DNA of 20,000 nucleotides from IMG/VR virus record IMGVR_UViG_3300022548_000001. One strand, 5' to 3'. The DNA comes from an uncultured virus (IMG/VR IMGVR_UViG_3300022548_000001). Taxonomy: Duplodnaviria; Heunggongvirae; Uroviricota; Caudoviricetes. A model generated the notes under the pieces. The model was not told the origin of the DNA, did not search any database, and saw only the letters and a program-made list of their open reading frames with translations. The position numbers and the translations under genes were made by a program. Positions 5,538 to 19,334 of this stretch are shown one piece after another (the stretch's first letter is position 1; each line of letters starts with the position of its first letter).

Positions 5538-6092
5538 TTATAAAACTATACTCTCATATTGAGATAAAAATTTTTTAATATCTATCATTTCTTGTTTTTC
5601 CTGAAAATCAAAATCAAGATCAATAACTTTGATAGGGTCCCAGCTTCTTTCGCCGTTTAATGGGTTAGGCCTGCATCCATATTCTACCCTATAAGGAAAT
5701 AATTCAAATGGAACTATTTCCGGCTCAAACATTGCAAATTGTTTTTGAAGCTCAGGCGGCAAATTCCTATTAAAAACTTTTGACAATTGTTCGTCAGTAA
5801 TTTTTAATCTATTAATCATGTATTGTTCTATAAATTCCCCATTCCTTCTTGCGTCAGGCCGAAATACGGAATGAAGAATAAGAAATACAAACAATTCTTT
5901 ATTGTTCATAAACCCGTCAAGAATTTTTACCATATTATTTGATACTTGATCAAGCAGGACAAGAAGACATTTAAAATTATTTAACTCATTTTTGGTATTA
6001 TCACACCAACCAATTTTGACAAAGTAATTGAAGGCGCGATTAAATTCCAAATATGGATTTCTTTTTTTATTAATCGCATTTCCGCTTTGCAT
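5538..6092 (-). CDS. Hypothetical protein (start uncertain)
   Basis: ORF track start at 6185 overlaps the primase-MCM gene by 116 bp. ATG at 6092 (MQSGNAIN) gives a 23-bp overlap. No recognised motifs. Confidence 0.6.
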   Translation of the reverse strand: MQSGNAINKKRNPYLEFNRAFNYFVKIGWCDNTKNELNNFKCLLVLLDQVSNNMVKILDGFMNNKELFVFLILHSVFRPDARRNGEFIEQYMINRLKITDEQLSKVFNRNLPPELQKQFAMFEPEIVPFELFPYRVEYGCRPNPLNGERSWDPIKVIDLDFDFQEKQEMIDIKKFLSQYESIVL

Positions 6093-9000
6093 ATCGCTCA
6101 CTAAGCGACTCAAATCTTTTGATCTTTTTGTCCATTTGAGAAGTGAGTTCATCTGGTGTAACATCGAGATAATCTGATCCTTCATATCCAGAATCTCTCT
6201 TTTCTATCAACCATTTTGAAAACATCTCCGTTTTTCTAAACATTCTATTTGACGTTCTTTCAAAACAATTTCTATGACAAAGAAGGTTAATTAATTTATA
6301 ACACACATCGGACGCGTATTTATACGAACAAGACCTTTCATTGTCATTTTTAGCGCTGACAATAAAAGCCCTGTTTGATATAACGGCGTCTATGTAGTCA
6401 AAGAAAACTTGCCTAAATGTACTTTCAGTGAATTCATCTTCTTTAATAAGTTGATCATATCCAATATATTTAATAATCCCCTCCATAAATCTCATATCAC
6501 CAAGCTTTTCGGCTTGATACTTGGCTTCTGAATATCTATCAAGGGCGATATTTGGATGGCAATATAATCTCATGAGGGTTGTGCATATAAAATCAACATG
6601 TTCCTTTGTAACATATATTTTATTCCAATCATTATTCGGCGGGATTGAATACAACATTGTCGCTATTGAAACCGACATTCTTAAAACCTTAGCCCTGATT
6701 TCAATATTAACAAGCTGACTTGAAGGATGAAATTTATTGAGAAGCACCCCCGATTTTTCCGTAATATACTCCTCAAGACCCGGCTCAAGAATTATATCGT
6801 CCGGCTTTCTTGAATAACACCATTTAATAAGATTTTGACATTGAAACTCGGTAAATTCCGTTGAAATTTGATCATATACGGATTGAAATTCTTTATAATC
6901 AACGTCGCTTTGTTTCACAATATACGCTATATCAAAACGTGAAAGTATCTCGTCTTTGTTAAAGCATAAATCTTTAAGCATTAAAAATGGTTGTGTATGT
7001 TCCTTTTTTGTTTTGTCGGTTCCCCGCTGGTTTGATAGCATTATTTTCCTTGTTCTGGCAGGGACTTTCCCAGATTTTGCCATTTGAACGTCGGCGACTC
7101 CGCTAGACCTGCAAGGAGTAAGACTATCAAAGCCTTCATAATTAATCTGACTAAGCTCGTCAATTATAATTATTCCACCGTCATTTGCCGGTATTTTTCC
7201 CCATGAAATCGATTGTGTATTCTTAAAAGTCGTTATTCCACCGAGAAGTCCGGTTCTGCTGACCGCCCCAGAACCGGATATGAACTCTCCTATCTTGTAA
7301 TGATTATGAAGAAATCGTGATACAACAGTTTTTCCACAGCGGGTTTCGCCGGCGATTAAGGCTTCAACATATCCTCGTGATATCGCAGGAAGCAAAGTTG
7401 TATTATGTATTTCCGCGGCAGAGAAGAAAGCAAGATCATTAATAAGAAACAGGTCGTCTCTTCCGGTTAACCCTGCGGCGTTTCCGAAAATTTTATACCG
7501 TCTCTTTAAATGACTTTCAATGCTTTCCCCGGGCTTTCTTCTGAACACCAGAAGAATATTGTGTATTTCTTCATTCATTACAAAATTCTCGATGGAAGTG
7601 GCTATAGGCTCGGCCTTATGAGCAAATAAGACGGCATATTGACCATTCCAAGAATTTGTTCTGACAGCCTCGAATCGATAAGATTTATTTGCATATATGT
7701 CTTGCTCGCCAAGCATGTACGCTTCCACTGTAATTGATGACGTGGCCGGGTCTCCATATTCAGCGACGTCTTTAGCGAGCCTGACATGAAGAATCTTTTC
7801 ATATTCAAGGTCTATAATTTTTAATCTATTACAATGAGAATTCGCAAGAATTAAGTCCTTAATATGATTTCTTTTTTGAGTTTCTGTCACTTGAATAAGT
7901 CCAAGTATATCGTGTTCCGATATTCTAATATGATTTCTATCAGTGACTCCTTCGTCCGTTCTTTCAAAATATAAAGTTATACCAGACTCTGTTTTATCAA
8001 ATTCCGGGTATGATGGAAGAGAGCAATTTTTGCATTTTCCAGATTTATTTGCGGCGCCGCCCGCACCCATTTCTTGGCATATAACACAAAATTTCTTTGG
8101 ATATTGATATGCAGTCGAATCAAAATCAGAGACTGACGATATAAGTTCGAGAATTATTGAACCATCGGAAGAATAATTTTTTGCCATTCTTGATTCTTGA
8201 AGCGTAACTTTTCTTTTTTCTTTCCGCGTTCTGCCTTCATTCTCGGTATAAACGTCAGTATCGTCCACCAATTTATTGAAAAGATAAATGGCGTGTTCAT
8301 TAAAACCATTTTTTTGAAGAAAATCGGTAAAATCTTTTTCCGCTCGTTTATATTTTTCCGCGCCGGATTTAGTTATGACTTTTTTCATTTTTGACGGATC
8401 AAGCCCTTTTGGATTTATGGGGCTTATATCAAGATTCACTATTTTAATTTGCCGAGCATATTGATACAGTGAGTGGGCAAGTTCTTGTGCGGGGGTTTTT
8501 CCTGTTTTTGCGTTTGGAGACGCGTCCGTGTCAAAAACAATAACTATTTCCTTATTATAAAATATCTGGCGGGCCATTTCTTCGCCAAAAATATTATTGA
8601 CATTATGGTTTGACATTCCGCCAAGAGTAACAGCCCCATCTATACCAAAAGAAATCGCGCAATACGTATCGGGCTCTCCTTCAAAGAAATAAATTTTTTG
8701 TTTTGTAAAATTATCAATCGGTATTGGTTTAACCGGAAGACCTTTTTCCCAATAATGCCATTTATAAGCCGGGTTTGGATTTTGTGGATCATAAATTTTT
8801 ATATTCAGGCAATACCCTTCGCTATCAATAATTGGAAAAGTAAATCTTCCTTTATCATCCAAACCTATTTTATATCGCTCAATTACCTGAGGCGTAATAC
8901 CTCTTGTTTGCTTTAAATATTCCATTTTACTATTATTTTCAAGAAGATTTTTTACTAACTTGTCAACAATAGATTTTGAAATTGTCGTTTCTTCTTTTAA

Positions 9001-9486
9001 TAACTCATTCAGCCCTGACGTCATTAAATATTTATACCCATCTTCTTGTTCTCGAGCTTTTCGCAATTTATCGGCAAAAATCATCATCTTTTGGCGATTT
9101 TCTTCAAATTCTTTATCATTAAAGCTTTCAGAAAATTTCATGATTTCAGTATTATTAAGGCCAAGAAAATCAATAATAAAATCCGAATATGAATCTCCAT
9201 AACGCGGGTCGCCTTTAAGCACTTCTTTCCAATATGATTGAAAATTCCCCATTATTGAACATGCAAAACAATGGTATTGACCCGTTTTATTATTTACAGA
9301 CATTGAAGGGTTATTATCAGTGCCTCTGCCATGAGCCGCGGCGTTCCAACAGTGAAAATTTCCATTCGATCCCTGCACCCACCCAAGTTTTTTATAAATT
9401 TCGTGATAATTTCCTGACATTATTTGGTCAGTCATGACATAAAAAGCTTTTAAATCTTCTTTTCGTATTTTATATTTTGTGCCCAT
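6070..9486 (-). CDS. Primase-helicase fusion: CHC2 zinc finger + DnaG-type TOPRIM primase + MCM-family AAA+ helicase
   Basis: Zn finger FHCWNAAAH..DNNPSMSV..YHCFAC; TOPRIM FEGEPD, VFDTD, KDFTDF; MCM motifs: Walker A GETRCGKT, GSGAVSRTGLLGG, WGKIPANDGGIIIIDE (Walker B), SGKVPARTRKIMLSN, arginine finger EILSRFD, VTKEHVD. ATG at 9486 has an AGGAG RBS. Confidence 0.9.
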   Translation of the reverse strand: MGTKYKIRKEDLKAFYVMTDQIMSGNYHEIYKKLGWVQGSNGNFHCWNAAAHGRGTDNNPSMSVNNKTGQYHCFACSIMGNFQSYWKEVLKGDPRYGDSYSDFIIDFLGLNNTEIMKFSESFNDKEFEENRQKMMIFADKLRKAREQEDGYKYLMTSGLNELLKEETTISKSIVDKLVKNLLENNSKMEYLKQTRGITPQVIERYKIGLDDKGRFTFPIIDSEGYCLNIKIYDPQNPNPAYKWHYWEKGLPVKPIPIDNFTKQKIYFFEGEPDTYCAISFGIDGAVTLGGMSNHNVNNIFGEEMARQIFYNKEIVIVFDTDASPNAKTGKTPAQELAHSLYQYARQIKIVNLDISPINPKGLDPSKMKKVITKSGAEKYKRAEKDFTDFLQKNGFNEHAIYLFNKLVDDTDVYTENEGRTRKEKRKVTLQESRMAKNYSSDGSIILELISSVSDFDSTAYQYPKKFCVICQEMGAGGAANKSGKCKNCSLPSYPEFDKTESGITLYFERTDEGVTDRNHIRISEHDILGLIQVTETQKRNHIKDLILANSHCNRLKIIDLEYEKILHVRLAKDVAEYGDPATSSITVEAYMLGEQDIYANKSYRFEAVRTNSWNGQYAVLFAHKAEPIATSIENFVMNEEIHNILLVFRRKPGESIESHLKRRYKIFGNAAGLTGRDDLFLINDLAFFSAAEIHNTTLLPAISRGYVEALIAGETRCGKTVVSRFLHNHYKIGEFISGSGAVSRTGLLGGITTFKNTQSISWGKIPANDGGIIIIDELSQINYEGFDSLTPCRSSGVADVQMAKSGKVPARTRKIMLSNQRGTDKTKKEHTQPFLMLKDLCFNKDEILSRFDIAYIVKQSDVDYKEFQSVYDQISTEFTEFQCQNLIKWCYSRKPDDIILEPGLEEYITEKSGVLLNKFHPSSQLVNIEIRAKVLRMSVSIATMLYSIPPNNDWNKIYVTKEHVDFICTTLMRLYCHPNIALDRYSEAKYQAEKLGDMRFMEGIIKYIGYDQLIKEDEFTESTFRQVFFDYIDAVISNRAFIVSAKNDNERSCSYKYASDVCYKLINLLCHRNCFERTSNRMFRKTEMFSKWLIEKRDSGYEGSDYLDVTPDELTSQMDKKIKRFESLSERYAKRKCD

Positions 9487-9514
9487 ATTTTCTCCTGCCA
9501 AAATATTATTAAAT

Positions 9515-9964: not shown

Positions 9965-9993
9965 TTGAAAATATGGTTTCGAAAATATATATT
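9965..9993 (+). promoter_or_regulatory. Sigma70-like rightward promoter (TTGAAA-17 nt-TATATT)
   Basis: TTGAAA at 9965-9970 and TATATT at 9988-9993; predicted transcription start near the ATG at 10000. Confidence 0.5.
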
Positions 9994-9999
9994 ATGAGT

Positions 10000-10230
10000 A
10001 TGAAAGATTCCAAACTCACATTATCTAAGGCTTCACATTTTTTAAATATACATCCAAAAACTCTCCAAAAAATGGATAGGGATGGAAGGCTTAAGGCTTT
10101 TCGTACCAAAACAAATCGTAGATATTATCTTAAATCTCAACTCCAAAAAATTAAAGACAAAATTGATAAAGAGCGTGACGTTAAATTTTTATATAATATA
10201 TTAAAACTTGTAAAAAAATATTATTATTAA
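10000..10230 (+). CDS. MerR/excisionase-like helix-turn-helix DNA-binding protein
   Basis: LTLSKASHFLNIHPKTLQKMDRDGRLKAFRTKTNRRYY matches the MerR-type/Xis winged HTH, also seen at the N-terminus of IS607 TnpA. Start could be 9973, 9994 or 10000. Confidence 0.8.
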   Translation: MKDSKLTLSKASHFLNIHPKTLQKMDRDGRLKAFRTKTNRRYYLKSQLQKIKDKIDKERDVKFLYNILKLVKKYYY

Positions 10231-10260: not shown

Positions 10261-11397
10261 ATGCTTGAATGGAAACATGATAAGCGCTGGAACCCATTTA
10301 ATAGTTATAAATTACTTATCCATGTTGAATATTGGAAAAAAATTAATAGAAGAAATATAATACCGGCCCCTATTCTTGTCACTGTCGATCCAAGTAATAT
10401 TTGTAATTTAAATTGTCAATGGTGCAATTCCGAATATATTAGAACAAAAAGCCATATAATGATGTCCGAAGATCTTCTTATAAAAATAGCGGATTATCTC
10501 CCCGTTTGGTGTAATTCTACTCCAGGCGTTCAGGCTGTGTGCATAGCCGGCGGAGGCGAACCGTTAACCAATCGCCATGTCGGCTCTTTTATAGAGCAAT
10601 TAATTAAAAATAAAATTGAAGTTGGCGTCGTTACTAACGGCGTATTAATAGATAAATTTATAGAACCATTATCAAAATGCTCATGGGTCGGCGTATCAGT
10701 AGACGCCGGAATCGGTCAAACATATAATTTATATAAAGGCTCCTCAACATTTGGAAAAGTAATTGAAAATATACAAGCCCTTATTAAGTATTCAAAAGAA
10801 AATAAAACAACGCTTGGCTCGGATAATCCTGCCTATGGCGTAAGTTATAAATACCTCATTTATAAAACTAATATACATGAAATGACGATTGCGGCTCAAA
10901 CAGCTAAAGACATTGGATGTAAAAATATTCATTTTCGGCCGGCTAGTGTCCCATGGGATAAACTTGAAAATCAAACTGTTTTATTTCATGATAACGACAT
11001 TCAAGAGTTTGATAATCAAATAAATAAATGCATGAATTTAGACGACAATACGTTTAACGTTTATGGAATAACTCATAAATTTAGCCCTCAATTTAAAAAA
11101 TCAAATAATTTTAAAAAATGCTATGCAATATTTATGACTGCAGTGTTTGAGCCTGGAATTAATCATAACACTTTTAATCTCGGGCTTTGTTGCGACAGGC
11201 GCGGAGACAAAACACTTGAATTATTAAAAAACTGCGGCAATCCGTCCGAAATTTCCTATGTATGGGGAGGCGCCGATCATTGGAAAATACATGATTCAAT
11301 ATGTGTATCAAAATGTCCTCGATGTACATACCAGCCTCATAATGAAATTTATGAGAACGTAATTCTTCAAGACAATATGACATATAAGTTTATATAG
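10261..11397 (+). CDS. Radical SAM enzyme with SPASM/twitch domain
   Basis: CNLNCQWC (CxxxCxxC), GGGEP, VTNG, VSVDAG; C-terminal Cys set KKCY...LCCD...CPRC; GGAGG RBS before ATG at 10261. Confidence 0.92.
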   Translation: MLEWKHDKRWNPFNSYKLLIHVEYWKKINRRNIIPAPILVTVDPSNICNLNCQWCNSEYIRTKSHIMMSEDLLIKIADYLPVWCNSTPGVQAVCIAGGGEPLTNRHVGSFIEQLIKNKIEVGVVTNGVLIDKFIEPLSKCSWVGVSVDAGIGQTYNLYKGSSTFGKVIENIQALIKYSKENKTTLGSDNPAYGVSYKYLIYKTNIHEMTIAAQTAKDIGCKNIHFRPASVPWDKLENQTVLFHDNDIQEFDNQINKCMNLDDNTFNVYGITHKFSPQFKKSNNFKKCYAIFMTAVFEPGINHNTFNLGLCCDRRGDKTLELLKNCGNPSEISYVWGGADHWKIHDSICVSKCPRCTYQPHNEIYENVILQDNMTYKFI

Positions 11398-11405
11398 GAG
11401 GGTAT

Positions 11406-12647
11406 ATGGCTGTTTCGGTTGTTGGTCTGGGAAAGCTTGGCCTTTGCACCGCCGCATGTTTATCATGCGAGGGTATACCGGTTATTGGATACGACAATGA
11501 TGAAACAAAAATATCTAATCTAAGTAAAAGAAAATGTTATATTGACGAACCAGGGCTTGAAGATAAATTAAACGACGCATTTATTAATCATTCATTTGCC
11601 GTTACGAATAGTATTGAAACCATCGTCGAACACACCAATCAAACATTTATAATAGTTCCAACCCCAAGCAATGAATATGGGTATTTTTCAAACGCGTCAA
11701 TAATAGACGTTCTTAAAAAAATGGTCATCCCGCTTCGAAGAAAAAAAGAATATCATATTATTAATATTGTTTCGACGGTTATGCCTGGTTCATGTAATAA
11801 ATTTATAACATACATTGAAAAGCATGCCAATAAAATTGCGGGAAAAGATTTTGACGTCGTATATAATCCAGAGTTTGTGGCCATAGGAAACGTTATACAA
11901 GGGTTTTTACACCCAGATATGGTATTAATAGGCTCCAACAGCGAAAACGCTGGAAAGGCTGTTGCTGATAATTATAAAACAATAAGCAATAATATTCAAA
12001 TAATGTCGCTGATAAACGCAGAGCTTACTAAGCTTAGTCTTAATTGCTTCTTAACAATGAAAATAAGTTTTATAAATGAAATTGCGACAATATGCGAAGT
12101 AACCCCCGGAGCAAATATAGATTATATTACCAACGCCATGGGGTGTGATTCAAGAATTGGACGTAAATTAATGACAGCAGGGCTTGGTTTTGGCGGCCCA
12201 TGCCTTCCTCGCGACATAATAGCCCTGTCCGCATATGCAAAGAAAAAAGGGTATAACCCGCACCTTTTATACGCTATTAATAAAACGAATAATAAGATCA
12301 TTGGGAAAATATTGTCAAAAATTTTATGCCATGCCCCACAAGACGCGATTATTGATATTTATGGATCTTCATATAAATCAGGAACAAAACTCACCGAAGG
12401 ATCTCAATCAATAATATTAAAAAATCAACTTATTGAAATGGGATATCAAAACACCCGAATGTTTGATAATCCGCATAATTATGATAAAGACGACCGCCCA
12501 TTAGTAATAATCATGATGTCCGATAATATTAAAATGAAATTTGAAGACATTATCACAAAAGAAACGATTTTTATTGATCCGTGGAGAAAATATATGCATT
12601 TAAAAAAACATTGTATCTATTATGGAACGGGGGTAAGCGTTGATTGA
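11406..12647 (+). CDS. Nucleotide-sugar dehydrogenase (UDP-glucose/GDP-mannose dehydrogenase family)
   Basis: VVGLGKLG Rossmann motif, IVPTP, STVMPG, YNPEF, AELTK...N, catalytic GFGGPCLPRD; GGAGG RBS. Confidence 0.93.
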   Translation: MAVSVVGLGKLGLCTAACLSCEGIPVIGYDNDETKISNLSKRKCYIDEPGLEDKLNDAFINHSFAVTNSIETIVEHTNQTFIIVPTPSNEYGYFSNASIIDVLKKMVIPLRRKKEYHIINIVSTVMPGSCNKFITYIEKHANKIAGKDFDVVYNPEFVAIGNVIQGFLHPDMVLIGSNSENAGKAVADNYKTISNNIQIMSLINAELTKLSLNCFLTMKISFINEIATICEVTPGANIDYITNAMGCDSRIGRKLMTAGLGFGGPCLPRDIIALSAYAKKKGYNPHLLYAINKTNNKIIGKILSKILCHAPQDAIIDIYGSSYKSGTKLTEGSQSIILKNQLIEMGYQNTRMFDNPHNYDKDDRPLVIIMMSDNIKMKFEDIITKETIFIDPWRKYMHLKKHCIYYGTGVSVD

Positions 12648-13437
12648 AATAAATAATGTAATAAATTATTGGAATAACCGCCCGTGTAATATCAGACATT
12701 CCGACAAACCAATCGGATCAAAAGAATATTTTGACGAAGTCGAAATTAAGAAATATACTGTTGAGCCGCATATTCCGCCATTCGCTGATTTTAAGGCGTG
12801 GAAAGGAAAAAAGGTTCTTGAAATAGGATGCGGAATAGGGACTGACACGATAAATTTCGCCAGACATGGCGCTATTGTTACCGCCGTAGACATTTCTGAG
12901 GAGTCTTTAAAAATAGCAAAAATAAGAGAAAAAGTTCTTGGGATAAGTCCTGGAAATATTAAATTTTACCAAGCTAACGCCGAAAAATTATCGGAAGTCA
13001 TTCCTATTGAAATATATGATCTTATATATTCTTTTGGCGTCCTGCATCACACGCCGTCTCCTGAATCCGCTATTTCAGAAATAAAAAAATACATGGGAGA
13101 AAAAACAATTTTAAAATTAATGTTATATCATAAAAATTCTACTAAAGCATTTTCGCACCCATTCCAATACGCTGGAAAATATTCAGAAGCCGAGCCCGGA
13201 TGTCCAATAACGCATATATATACAAAATTAGACGTAAAAAGGCTTCTTCAAGATTTTCATATTCATGAAATAAAAGTCGATCATATTTTTCCATATCATA
13301 TAAAATCATATAAAAAACATATATATAAAAAAAGGTGGTATTGGGCTATAATGCCAAAATCTATTTTTTATTTTTTAGAAAAAACATTTGGATGGCATTT
13401 ATTAATTACAGCGTCACTAAAACAGCATAAAAACTAA
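12640..13437 (+). CDS. Class I SAM-dependent methyltransferase
   Basis: VLEIGCGIG motif I, VTAVDIS, YDLIYSFGVLHH; TTG start overlaps the upstream stop, with GGGG RBS. No DPPY/NPPY or PCQ motif, so not a canonical DNA methyltransferase. Confidence 0.88.
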   Translation: MIEINNVINYWNNRPCNIRHSDKPIGSKEYFDEVEIKKYTVEPHIPPFADFKAWKGKKVLEIGCGIGTDTINFARHGAIVTAVDISEESLKIAKIREKVLGISPGNIKFYQANAEKLSEVIPIEIYDLIYSFGVLHHTPSPESAISEIKKYMGEKTILKLMLYHKNSTKAFSHPFQYAGKYSEAEPGCPITHIYTKLDVKRLLQDFHIHEIKVDHIFPYHIKSYKKHIYKKRWYWAIMPKSIFYFLEKTFGWHLLITASLKQHKN

Positions 13438-13677: not shown

Positions 13678-16035
13678 TTATCCAAACGGCCAATCAAATA
13701 TTGGAAATCCATCCTTTCCTATTCCTCCTCTGATGGCGCTGACAAAATAATCAATGCCAAGTTCTTTAACTCTTTTCATTCCATTTTTTGAAAGCATATA
13801 TGTCATTGATTTTGCTATTGATTGATCAAATGTAATGGTTATACCCCAATCGTCTTCAGCTCTCATAATACGTCCATACATTTGAATCATATCAGTAAAT
13901 ACCGCCCTATCCAAATAATTTGGATCTTTTGAAATATTAAACGTTTCATTTCCTTTATATTTTGACATTACATACGGATCGCCAAGGCTTGGGATTGGCT
14001 TTTTCAGAATTATTTGTATTCTTGCTGTATCATATTTAAAATCCACCCCTTCATTAACAGACGCTGATACAAAAGTAATTCCTTCGTTTGGGTGGCGGAA
14101 CAAATATTGAAGGATTTCATCTTTATGAATAAAATTTGTCACATGATGCGTTATTTTATTTTTAATCGACTTGTCATTTTTTCCAATTTGAATAAACCAT
14201 TTTTCGTTTACATATGGACAGAATTCAGCTATTCTTTTCGCCAAATCAAACGAAAAAACATGAACAATTACATTAGCGTTTGACGACGGTTGAGCGTTTT
14301 TTCCTATAATCTTTTTTATATTTTCTTCTTTTTTGCAATATTCGCGCACTTTTTCAATAATCTCACCAAGCTGTCTAGTAAAATTTAATGTTCCGTCATG
14401 AGTTTTATATATATATGATCCAGATTCGTTTTTTTGAGAAAAATCCATATAATTGCTTCCACGGAGAATGTATATCGGCCTTCGTTCCCTATCAAATGTC
14501 GTCGGTATCGAAATCATTTCAACACTGTTCATGTTAACCCCAAACGTCTTCATCATACCAATCTGATCTATCCATGTTCCAGTGCTTAAAATGACATGCT
14601 CCGCTTTGTTATAAAAGAACGTATTCATGATTTCGGGAACGTTTATTGGCACTAACTTTATAGATTGCAATTCGGCTTTATGATAATCAGGCATAACATT
14701 TTTTACAAAAGCAATAATATCGCTTTCTTCGTATGCCCTCCACATATTATTCATACAATTTGAAAATATGAAAGAATTAGGTATATTCATCAAACCAACA
14801 ATGTCTTCAAGATGTTCTATTGCATTGTTGTACCACATATAATTTTTCATAGAACTAAAATTAAAAAAAGTATGATCACATTGATTGTCTTCACACTTTT
14901 TTAAAAAATACTCCCGACATTTAACCCATGCCTTATTAAGACGAGGGTTTTCACAATTTCCTTTACAAACAGAATCAATAAAATTTAACATATTAAATTG
15001 TATTTTATCCGGCGACATGTCAGAAATTATTTTAAATTCATTAACAAGCTGATTTGTGCTTGCTGGTATCTTTACGCCGCCGCCAAGATAAGAATATCCA
15101 TATATAGGCCACAAATGAGACGTAAGAATCGCGGCGCATTTCGCGGGAAGTATTACTGTTTTCATTAAATACATAAATTTTTCAGTAAATTCTTTTATAT
15201 CCTGACAATCATAAAGTTCTGATATATCTATTCCAAAATATTTTTTAAGAAATTCAACGTGAATTCCGCCTCCAAATATTCTTTCGACAATATTTTCTAT
15301 TTTATGGCATTCATCAATAACCATAAGCTTGTTCTCGTTAAAAAGCGGAGATTGAATCCTATTAAGCATATAAAAAACGTCAGGATTCAAAATTCGTATT
15401 TGATATACTTGTGATAACACTCTTGTGCTTTTTACTGGGCATTCAACCGGACTTATATCGCATCCTATTATAGAAGAATAAAATCTATGATGAATAACAT
15501 CATTAGGATATAATGTTTTTATCCGATTTAAAACATTAGAAATATCATCGGAAATTTCAAAACCGGATCTCATTCTAAAAATTCTATTATCATTTCCATA
15601 CATATTAATAATTTTATGAATACTTTTTAAAAGATCTGAATCTGAAAATGACGATTTTTTATTTGAATTTTGACATGTTTCGTATTGATCGCCGGAATAA
15701 TTGCATCTGATTCGCTCATCAAGAATGGTCGCTCCATTACAACAATATGCGCCGCGCCCTTTAACCATTTTTATTTCAGGCCACAGCTCTTTAACCATTT
15801 GATCTTGAAGCTGCTTTTGGTGTGTCAAGTAGACGGTCTTGCCAAGACACATTCCGACGGTATAATTAATTGCCGATTTCCCGCAGCCAACCGGCCCATT
15901 AAGACAGACAAATTTTTTCCCATTTTGAAACGCCTCAATAATTTTAATAATGGTTTCTTTTTGATATGGTCTATAGCGCGGAGACCCATCGCTATTTTTT
16001 ATTGGAAAATGTTTATCAATCAGATCATTAATCAT
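13678..16035 (-). CDS. DinG/XPD(Rad3)-like superfamily 2 helicase
   Basis: Q motif RPYQ, Walker A GPVGCGKS, VKGRGAYCC, DECH box, ILSTGT, NEGVDFK, motif VI QMYGRIMRAEDDWG; Cys cluster after motif Ia is compatible with an Fe-S domain; AGGAG RBS. Confidence 0.88.
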   Translation of the reverse strand: MINDLIDKHFPIKNSDGSPRYRPYQKETIIKIIEAFQNGKKFVCLNGPVGCGKSAINYTVGMCLGKTVYLTHQKQLQDQMVKELWPEIKMVKGRGAYCCNGATILDERIRCNYSGDQYETCQNSNKKSSFSDSDLLKSIHKIINMYGNDNRIFRMRSGFEISDDISNVLNRIKTLYPNDVIHHRFYSSIIGCDISPVECPVKSTRVLSQVYQIRILNPDVFYMLNRIQSPLFNENKLMVIDECHKIENIVERIFGGGIHVEFLKKYFGIDISELYDCQDIKEFTEKFMYLMKTVILPAKCAAILTSHLWPIYGYSYLGGGVKIPASTNQLVNEFKIISDMSPDKIQFNMLNFIDSVCKGNCENPRLNKAWVKCREYFLKKCEDNQCDHTFFNFSSMKNYMWYNNAIEHLEDIVGLMNIPNSFIFSNCMNNMWRAYEESDIIAFVKNVMPDYHKAELQSIKLVPINVPEIMNTFFYNKAEHVILSTGTWIDQIGMMKTFGVNMNSVEMISIPTTFDRERRPIYILRGSNYMDFSQKNESGSYIYKTHDGTLNFTRQLGEIIEKVREYCKKEENIKKIIGKNAQPSSNANVIVHVFSFDLAKRIAEFCPYVNEKWFIQIGKNDKSIKNKITHHVTNFIHKDEILQYLFRHPNEGITFVSASVNEGVDFKYDTARIQIILKKPIPSLGDPYVMSKYKGNETFNISKDPNYLDRAVFTDMIQMYGRIMRAEDDWGITITFDQSIAKSMTYMLSKNGMKRVKELGIDYFVSAIRGGIGKDGFPIFDWPFG

Positions 16036-18513: not shown

Positions 18514-18550
18514 ACCCTTCCCCCTCCTTAAAAAAAAATTTAAAAAAAGT

Positions 18551-18635
18551 TTTAAATCCGCGGCGTTCACCATGAACGCCGCGGATGGCCTTGCAATAGC
18601 CCGGCGCCGGGGTGGCCAGACCCGGCGCCGTGAGG
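18551..18635. repeat. 85-bp GC-rich double-hairpin direct repeat, copy 1
   Basis: 83 of 85 positions identical to 18950-19034; 14-bp perfect stem ATCCGCGGCGTTCA-CCA-TGAACGCCGCGGAT and 10-bp stem CGGCGCCGGG-9 nt-CCCGGCGCCG. Confidence 0.95.
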
Positions 18636-18641
18636 CTGCCA

Positions 18642-18893
18642 TCACTTTGCAAGGTCGACGACGTCAAATACCTTGCCTACATCATTTTCGCCTTTTTCTC
18701 CAGCAACAACTGCGTCCTCCCTCTCGGGAGGCCGGCCCGGTATGTAGTATACCGGGGAATACACGTAATCAGGCCCCATCCTGTACAGTGCTATTTTCCC
18801 AACCTTCATGGCATCCGGGGGCAGCGGCCCCCAGTTTTCGTGGGGCCCGTTCCCATAGCCGCCCCACGAAATCCCGTACCTGTACCACGCCAT
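18642..18893 (-). CDS. Hypothetical protein (83 aa) flanked by the 85-bp repeats
   Basis: GAGGAGGG RBS; Gly/Tyr/Pro-rich N-terminus MAWYRYGISWGGYGNG. Confidence 0.7.
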   Translation of the reverse strand: MAWYRYGISWGGYGNGPHENWGPLPPDAMKVGKIALYRMGPDYVYSPVYYIPGRPPEREDAVVAGEKGENDVGKVFDVVDLAK

Positions 18894-18914
18894 ATTTCCC
18901 TCCTCTGTTTCTGC

Positions 18915-18937
18915 CGCCCTGTCGTCGGCCGGGCGGC
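18915..18937. repeat. 23-bp GC-rich hairpin repeat, copy 2
   Basis: Identical to 18028-18050; here the stem extends to GCCGCCC/GGGCGGC. Confidence 0.9.
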
Positions 18938-18949
18938 GACGCCTAAAAA

Positions 18950-19034
18950 TTTAAATCCGCGGCGTTCACCATGAACGCCGCGGATGGCCTTGCAATAGCC
19001 CAGCGCCGGGGTGGCCAGACCCGGCGCTGTGAGG
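18950..19034. repeat. 85-bp GC-rich double-hairpin direct repeat, copy 2
   Basis: As copy 1, but the second stem reads CAGCGCCGGG/CCCGGCGCTG. Confidence 0.95.
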
Positions 19035-19038
19035 TAGA

Positions 19039-19230
19039 CTACTCTGCCTCTTTCGACGTGAGGCGTTCTGCCCCACGCCTTTTTCTGGCATTGATCATAG
19101 AATCAATGCCAGTTTTCAAGACAGAGAGCTGCTCGGGTGTCATCCACCCGAACAGCTTCTCTAACTCCGCCGTCATGATCCCATGCCACCTCATGGGATC
19201 TGAGTTTTTAATTGCCTCTCTGAATTTCAT
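19039..19230 (-). CDS. Small hypothetical protein (63 aa, MKFREAIK...)
   Basis: GAGGAG RBS before ATG at 19230; first gene of the leftward small-ORF run. Confidence 0.7.
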   Translation of the reverse strand: MKFREAIKNSDPMRWHGIMTAELEKLFGWMTPEQLSVLKTGIDSMINARKRRGAERLTSKEAE

Positions 19231-19265
19231 ATTACTCCTCTGCCGGCAATAAGCCGGTATTATTT

Positions 19266-19334
19266 TCCGTCGGAACCCGCCGACGGACGGTGCGGCGAAT
19301 CGCCGCAATTTGTACGAAGTATTTCTTCGTACAA
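19266..19334. promoter_or_regulatory. Three tandem perfect hairpins in the leader of the leftward ORF run
   Basis: TCCGTCGG/CCGACGGA (19266-19287), TGCGGCG/CGCCGCA (19291-19307), TTGTACGAAG/CTTCGTACAA (19310-19334). Confidence 0.7.

Follow-up and report, generated by a model that had tools for sequence, protein, structure and literature searches.

The window analyzed here is a 20,000-nt stretch of DNA from the uncultured tailed virus IMGVR_UViG_3300022548_000001; it forms the final 20 kb of a 75,655-bp contig (L100), and our scans of this phage cover the window only. Between a minus-strand gene for a primase-MCM fusion and a minus-strand gene for a DinG-like helicase, the open reading frame (ORF) listing and Pfam reveal a plus-strand unit, hereafter the cassette, whose core encodes a radical S-adenosylmethionine (SAM) enzyme (rSAM), a nucleoside diphosphate (NDP)-sugar dehydrogenase, and a methyltransferase. 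The genes are as follows.

6070..9501, minus strand: primase-MCM fusion, left flank (Pfam MCM, 5.4e-7, and Zn_ribbon_DnaG; PHROG primase)
9973..10230, plus strand: small helix-turn-helix (HTH) DNA-binding protein, HTH_17/MerR-type, excisionase-like (Pfam HTH_17, 5.6e-7, 30.2 bits against a cut-off of 27)
10261..11397 (alternative start, 10240), plus strand: rSAM (Pfam Radical_SAM, 2.2e-15)
11406..12647, plus strand: NDP-sugar 6-dehydrogenase of the UDP-glucose/GDP-mannose dehydrogenase family (Pfam; NCBIfam TIGR03026)
12640..13437, plus strand: class I SAM-dependent methyltransferase with a TTG start (Pfam Methyltransf_31; phrog_22502)
13678..16035, minus strand: DinG/Rad3-like helicase, right flank, convergent with the cassette (Pfam Helicase_C_2, 4.6e-15, and ResIII; phrog_2488, 1e-54)

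A first-pass annotation of the sequence had described the last three plus-strand genes as tightly coupled, on the strand opposite to their flanks, and placed between the primase-MCM block and the DinG helicase. The ORF listing and translations bear out the coupling (an 8-nt gap between the rSAM and dehydrogenase genes at 11398-11405 and an 8-nt overlap between the dehydrogenase and methyltransferase genes at 12640-12647), and Pfam and PHROG bear out the placement. Its choice of rSAM start also holds: homologues begin at the equivalent position in an alignment of the family (A1) and a GGAGGA lies just 5' of it, so 10261 is likely the true start. The trio was confirmed as co-directional and tightly linked; a fourth plus-strand gene, overlooked at the time, heads the unit at 9973-10230. 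Its product matches PHROG excisionase and regulator families (up to 1e-5), in the related phage contigs L002, L081, L101, and L104 its homologues immediately precede the rSAM gene, and no member was seen in the bacterial cassette loci that we surveyed; this HTH_17/MerR-type protein is probably a regulator of the cassette peculiar to the phages. The earlier description of the genes as inserted is misleading, since their GC content (0.33 to 0.37) is like that of the flanks and the same placement recurs in the four related contigs.

The rSAM carries the CxxxCxxC motif of the radical SAM superfamily and five invariant C-terminal cysteines (residues 294, 317, 318, 359, and 362 in A1), which are compatible with a one-cluster twitch pattern. 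Pfam SPASM (PF13186) gave no match at E ≤ 0.01; the best fold matches of the predicted structure are SPASM/twitch enzymes, and the model lies nearest to SkfB, DesII (TDP-amino-deoxy-sugar), and BlsE (cytosylglucuronic acid). In sequence the rSAM is unlike DesII and BlsE (11 to 13% identity), the NCBIfam BlsE model scores 28 bits against a cut-off of 400, and the family is set apart by invariant C-terminal motifs of its own (A1). The last 24 residues (362 to 385) are near-invariant across 27 sequences yet are modeled with a predicted local distance difference test (pLDDT) score below 50, which raises the possibility of a lid or of a tail that docks with a partner. In the ESM Atlas, the clusters nearest to the rSAM are mostly viral among members of known taxon, which we take as a lead only.

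The dehydrogenase belongs to the UDP-glucose/GDP-mannose dehydrogenase family by its N-terminal (PF03721, UDPG_MGDP_dh_N, 1.5e-39) and central (PF00984, 1.4e-28) domains, and it passes the cut-off of the nucleotide-sugar dehydrogenase subfamily TIGR03026 (284 against 189.8 bits). Its top PDB match is 3gg2 (1e-49), with the catalytic Cys motif aligned, and the catalytic residues, including this Cys, are invariant in alignment A2. The C-terminal domain (PF03720) had no Pfam match at E ≤ 0.01, and the 3gg2 alignment reaches only the start of the domain; in A2 this nucleotide-binding domain is present but shortened by deletions in two phage dehydrogenases. The enzyme falls below the equivalog cut-offs for AglM (210 against 670 bits), TuaD (188 against 700 bits), and PRK15057 (69 against 757 bits), and therefore UDP-glucose should not be assumed to be its substrate.

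Five Pfam methyltransferase models match the third protein at 1e-15 to 2e-19 (best, Methyltransf_31, 1.9e-19), which places it in class I; it matches phrog_22502 over its full length (3.1e-56) and shares 51% identity with gp226 of Synechococcus phage Bellamy. In Haloferax volcanii, the UDP-glucose dehydrogenase AglM and the methyltransferase AglP produce a methylated hexuronic acid of the N-glycan. The window shares this pairing, and its dehydrogenase is matched by the NCBIfam AglM model at 4.7e-62, although at the subthreshold score given above; the archaeal system has no rSAM. The intact catalytic residues of the dehydrogenase, the twitch/SPASM-like rSAM near DesII and BlsE, and the methyltransferase together support the nucleotide-sugar tailoring pathway that had been proposed.

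As judged from its sequence relatives, the trio is not phage specific but is part of a widespread cellular cassette. Among 1535 candidates, 640 rSAM homologues were found at E ≤ 0.001, the best 120 of which (53 to 71% identical) come from Thermodesulfobacteriota, Nitrospirota, Planctomycetota, Synergistota, Bacillota, and several archaeal bins. The cassette is conserved at about 55% identity across phyla, and its carriers are anaerobic bacteria and some archaea. A distant-mode DNA-level search of the phage database with the trio returned nothing, as did single-protein locus searches of viral and genome contigs, and a profile made from A1 was needed to recover the loci. With it we obtained the best 80 of 101 confirmed loci from genomes (110 candidates), 6 loci from viral contigs (30 candidates), and the best 80 of 253 confirmed loci from metagenomes (333 candidates); removal of 12 loci with a duplicate rSAM sequence left 154 unique loci.

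Where at least 4 kb was available on both sides (70 unique loci), a dehydrogenase gene lies within 5 kb of the rSAM gene in 53 cases and directly 3' of it (≤150 nt) in 37. A methyltransferase gene is found within 6 kb in 34 of these loci, all 34 of which also have the dehydrogenase, and 28 have the gene order of the window; the 17 well-flanked loci without a nearby dehydrogenase belong mostly to more divergent rSAM clades. When at least 3.5 kb downstream is the only requirement (99 loci), the dehydrogenase follows in 72 and the full gene order is seen in 43. This linkage argues against an rSAM that acts on a peptide or protein, like a SPASM-type maturase, and is only loosely tied to sugar metabolism. 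The same is true of the tie between SkfB and the pair DesII and BlsE in the fold comparison, and neither a precursor-peptide-like gene nor a recognition element for ribosomally synthesized and post-translationally modified peptides was noticed in the window; we consider a maturase role very improbable.

To describe the context of the cassette, neighboring ORFs were clustered and the cluster representatives were scanned with Pfam. Among the 90 unique cellular and metagenomic loci of at least 12 kb, flagellar genes occur in 16 (12 of them with two or more families) and a glycosyltransferase gene in at least 47, only queried clusters being counted. The flagellar neighbors are late genes (FlgI, FlgN, FlgK, flagellin, FliD, FliS, FliT, FliW, and CsrA); O-antigen-type neighbors also occur (Wzm/Wzt, LptF/G, an ArnT-like protein, and DegT aminotransferase), and further neighbors are TPR-linked and GT2 glycosyltransferases, B12-radical SAM enzymes, FkbM methyltransferases, and NAD-synthase-family proteins. 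Flagellin glycosylation islands combine sugar-synthesis genes and TPR-linked or GT2 transferases beside flgK/flgL, fliC, fliD, and fliS. Trio homologues 45 to 57% identical to those of the window stand in such islands of Planctomycetota and Nitrospirota, co-directional with flagellar late genes and glycosyltransferase genes. In contrast, no flagellar genes were found in the window or the five phage-clade loci, and no Pse/Leg (nonulosonic acid) genes lie beside the phage cassette. Because the homologues sit in loci for the sugar decoration of flagella and cell surfaces, an unusual modified sugar for coating proteins, not phage DNA, is the most likely product.

Four other contigs share the arrangement in which the HTH gene is followed by the rSAM gene beside the primase-MCM block.

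L101: rSAM 71% identical to that of the window
L104: rSAM 59% identical; full trio
L081 (identical to L108): 81-kb IMG/VR record; rSAM 61% identical; the record stops at the rSAM gene
L002 (G002:C2, hereafter C2): 168,390 bp; full trio; binned with a Thermoplasmatales-labeled metagenome-assembled genome (MAG)

C2 is a tailed phage with genes for a large terminase, a head protease, a baseplate wedge protein, an endolysin-like protein, and a giant RNA-polymerase-like protein, and it is syntenic with the window over 22.4 to 43.4 kb. Between the window and C2, the rSAMs are 59 to 60%, the dehydrogenases 47%, and the methyltransferases 56% identical; seven proteins of the replication block are 45 to 68% identical (primase-MCM, 68%; DinG-like helicase, 57%). 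In the rSAM tree (146 rows), the five phage rows form one clade with long internal branches (Shimodaira-Hasegawa-like approximate likelihood ratio test [SH-aLRT] support of 98), which is sister to a cellular clade of 97 rows, and with three rows each, the phage dehydrogenases group in a single clade (support of 100), as do the phage methyltransferases (support of 89). These phage-only clades, with divergence like that of the replication genes, indicate a single acquisition of the cassette as a whole, followed by vertical inheritance; on this phylogenetic evidence, it entered the phage lineage once and long ago and is not a recent insert. The first-pass annotation had weighed its pathway against an ordinary bacterial surface-polysaccharide locus that had recently been captured. 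The closest homologues do lie in surface-glycan loci, but the capture is old: the deep phage-only clades and the co-divergence with core genes rule out recent capture from a bacterial O-antigen locus.

An archaeal virus was considered because of the Thermoplasmatales-labeled bin. The endolysin-like and sigma-factor-like proteins of C2 point to a bacterial host, which suggests that the contig was mis-binned in an archaeal MAG. The C2 cassette has two ORFs that are not in the window, a transposase-like one (phrog_506) between the HTH and rSAM genes at C2 32366-33565 (L092:12366-13565) and an extra 98-aa ORF between the rSAM and dehydrogenase genes at C2 35079-35375.

No glycosyltransferase or base hydroxymethylase was found among the 32 window ORFs scanned with Pfam, as had been stated in the first pass. 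The genome-wide search that it recommended was run in the relatives; GT-A glycosyltransferases were found there, but thymidylate-synthase-like and TGT-like genes were not. The PHROG scan of C2 covered 148 of its 190 ORFs (those of at least 90 aa within one sequence piece), and the Pfam scan covered 130 of these 148, the other 18 being PHROG-named ORFs, the trio, and one 2476-aa ORF. Nine ORFs across piece boundaries were scanned separately, and 90 aa was the lower limit of the C2 scan. Pfam and a six-frame family search located three GT2 genes (88.4 to 90.3 kb and 92.2 to 93.2 kb) with a Methyltransf_24 gene among them, all inside a long plus-strand late operon that also contains the terminase and head protease genes. 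A minus-strand cluster at 115 to 121.6 kb encodes a NadE-like protein, a sulfotransferase, two FkbM methyltransferases, and a 306-aa protein without a Pfam match (L097:639-1559, minus strand).

The 306-aa protein is 38 to 42% identical to proteins or domains adjoining the cassette in 15 of 90 bacterial loci, and it has a 63% identical orthologue near the opposite end of the 81-kb relative. Its core is well modeled (pLDDT of 64.5 overall), and its best listed Foldseek matches are all glycosyltransferases, including WrtF, K4 chondroitin polymerase, ppGalNAc transferases, RmlT, and TarP. The protein, with its predicted GT-A glycosyltransferase fold, is thus a candidate transferase for the cassette sugar, and C2 has in total four GT-A glycosyltransferases, three of them in the late operon. 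It is the phage copy of a family of about 300 aa without a Pfam match that recurs beside the cassette (L015, L054, L062, L018, L028, and L056) and is also found as tandem domains in giant enzymes.

Because three of the four C2 transferases sit in the late operon, virion proteins are favored as the acceptor. The same position speaks against a sugar that remodels the host surface, where it would alter a flagellin, S-layer, or lipopolysaccharide glycan, either blocking superinfection by competing phages or topping up a host pathway needed for the receptor of the phage itself. Such a role would fit the homologues in flagellin glycosylation islands and in the O-antigen-type loci with Wzm/Wzt, LptF/G, and ArnT-like genes, as well as the fact that the cassette, with an HTH regulator of its own, is a transcription unit distinct from the early-type genes around it. 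Comparable cyanomyovirus glycan clusters were classed by their authors as cell-wall synthesis/modification genes (PMC12801897). Nevertheless, neither the window nor C2 yielded a flagellar, Wzx/Wzy, Gtr-type, or lipid-carrier gene, and no integrase was found in the window; we regard host-surface remodeling as unlikely, though worth keeping in view.

Use of the sugar on DNA fares less well. Here, an activated modified uronic acid would be attached to a base in the phage DNA and so protect it from restriction or CRISPR nucleases, and the location of the cassette between the primase-MCM and helicase genes is what such a function might lead one to expect. A PurZ-like enzyme together with a dATP/dGTP pyrophosphohydrolase is typical of phages with 2-aminoadenine (Z) genomes. 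C2 has both, a PurZ-like adenylosuccinate-synthetase homologue at C2 4711-5919 (L091; phrog_1211, 3e-65) and the pyrophosphohydrolase at C2 105972-106646 (L096; phrog_801, 2.5e-36), neither of which is in the window, and they are signs of non-canonical DNA. A closer precedent is Bacillus phage SP-15, whose DNA carries glucuronolactone phosphate and glucose on dihydroxypentyluracil and whose UDP-glucose dehydrogenase (UGDH) gene lies in a cluster proposed to make those DNA sugars (PMC5977210). As in the window, a phage-encoded UGDH-family enzyme is thought to supply glucuronate, which in SP-15 ends on DNA. SP-15 differs, however, in having a hydroxymethyl-dUMP synthase and teichoic-acid-type transferases and no rSAM, a term that is absent from that paper.

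Six-frame searches of the 168-kb and 81-kb relatives found neither a thymidylate-synthase-like gene (PF00303) nor a TGT/DpdA-like gene (PF01702), the PHROG and Pfam scans of the 168-kb relative agree for thymidylate-synthase-like and TGT-like genes, and the Pfam scan of the window ORFs found no base-activating enzyme of the thymidylate-synthase-like, TET/JBP, or DpdA/TGT-like types. The cellular homologues of all three cassette genes lie in protein- or surface-glycan loci, and the C2 transferases are of GT-A/GT2 types, in a late operon. The DNA hypermodification that the first-pass annotation had put forward has thus gained no support and seems to us quite improbable, whereas its alternative of virion or host-surface glycosylation is favored by the homologue loci and by the GT-A genes of the relatives.

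Known phage sugar pathways include DNA glucosylation, serotype conversion, cyanophage glycan clusters, and mycobacteriophage virion glycans. UGDH-like genes were found in 40 phage records, including SP-15 and cyanophages that have UGDH beside a NadE-like gene. In Bellamy, a NadE-like gene, the methyltransferase gene (gp226), UGDH, and a glycosyltransferase gene form a run within a 14-gene sugar cluster (gp215-228), and UGDH and the methyltransferase are likewise adjacent in a 642-kb uncultured phage. The Bellamy cluster has the same methyltransferase family as the phage cassette, there directly beside UGDH, NadE-like, and glycosyltransferase genes. It differs in having no rSAM partner, in a UGDH that is 25% identical, and in its location in an auxiliary-gene region and not among replication genes. 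A NadE-like gene is found repeatedly beside the dehydrogenase gene (L001, L023, L035, L076, and Bellamy gp225 at L194:8252-8992) and is also present at C2 115137-115979. These companions in bacteria, C2, and cyanophages suggest tailoring of a carboxylate by amidation, and their association with the dehydrogenase appears to be undescribed.

More distant rSAM homologues are found in three IMG/VR contigs (L082, L083, and L086) within large glycan clusters that contain GT2, GT1, FkbM, NeuB, sulfotransferase, and aminotransferase genes. In L082 (115,760 bp), the cluster is a 20-kb, one-strand glycan island with at least four radical SAM genes (one B12-type and two SPASM) in addition to NeuB, CMP-transferase, transketolase halves, sulfotransferase, and several methyltransferases. 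In mycobacteriophages, the capsid and tail tube are reported to bear glycans made by phage-encoded transferases (PMC12619734). C2 similarly encodes three GT2 enzymes and a methyltransferase within its late operon, whereas the window has no transferase of its own. Mycobacteriophage virion glycosylation is not known to involve a sugar-synthesis cassette with a radical SAM enzyme.

With slightly better than even confidence, we propose that the phage cassette makes a radical-tailored, methylated nucleotide sugar of the uronic acid type for protein or surface glycosylation, with virion proteins as the favored target; both the chemistry and the acceptor are ones that we infer. The dehydrogenase would oxidize an NDP-hexose to an NDP-hexuronic acid, and the twitch-type rSAM would abstract a ring hydrogen, as DesII, BlsE, and BtrN do, so that the sugar would be oxidized, decarboxylated, or epimerized. 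The methyltransferase would then methylate a hydroxyl or the carboxylate, and GT-A transferases encoded elsewhere in the phage genome would attach the finished sugar to a protein or surface glycan. Virion proteins would come first among the acceptors, the host envelope or flagellum second, and DNA third.

Several points weigh against this proposal. No member of the highly conserved rSAM family is a characterized enzyme, and the nucleotide-binding domain of the dehydrogenase is, as aligned, atypical, so that the nucleotide sugar is not identifiable from it. The glycosyltransferase is missing from the window, and the transferases of the window phage would be extrapolated from relatives whose trio proteins are 47 to 61% identical. 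For the GT2 enzymes of C2, a role on virion proteins is suggested by their late-operon position, while the cassette itself lies among replication genes on its own strand, outside the late operon. The order of the reactions, the product, and the acceptor would all follow from the gene content and its parallels. A broader proposal is tentative, and we think it possible but doubtful as a whole: the rSAM and the dehydrogenase may constitute an undescribed pathway, in which an NDP-uronic acid undergoes a radical change and is then methylated, that is common to the flagellin islands of anaerobes and to phages of about 170 kb that coat their virions with a host-like sugar.

Other features of the window and of C2 lie apart from the cassette. 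The tRNA and Rfam scans of the window gave zero matches. Between 9400 and 13800, 36 promoter-like sites (21 expected) and 1 terminator-like site (2.8 expected) were counted, a scan that is uninformative in such AT-rich DNA. Two 90-nt direct repeats (18546-18635 and 18945-19034), 96% identical and each with a near-perfect GC hairpin, bound a GC-rich stretch at 18546-19330 (about 50% GC against about 31% for the genome); small minus-strand ORFs are present both between the repeats and after them. Neither Rfam nor Pfam matches the stretch, and the 168-kb relative has no homologue of it; a small mobile element or inserted foreign DNA is a possible origin. C2 has a reverse transcriptase gene at 70949-71995 (L094:10949-11995, minus strand; RVT_1, 9e-20) adjoining an RNase H gene; the reverse transcriptase may be part of a diversity-generating retroelement.

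In full-text searches that combined radical SAM with UDP-glucuronic acid or with flagellin glycosylation, no paper described the pair of rSAM and dehydrogenase, and we found no description of a phage sugar pathway centered on such a sugar-tailoring enzyme. Although uncharacterized, the pair shows unusual conservation that extends across bacteria, archaea, and phages, and cultivable carriers of the cassette include Trichlorobacter thiogenes ATCC BAA-34 (L076) and Dethiosulfatarculus sandiegensis (L056). Solving the pair would name a sugar that decorates the flagella of many anaerobes, and it would help to show what large environmental phages glycosylate and why.

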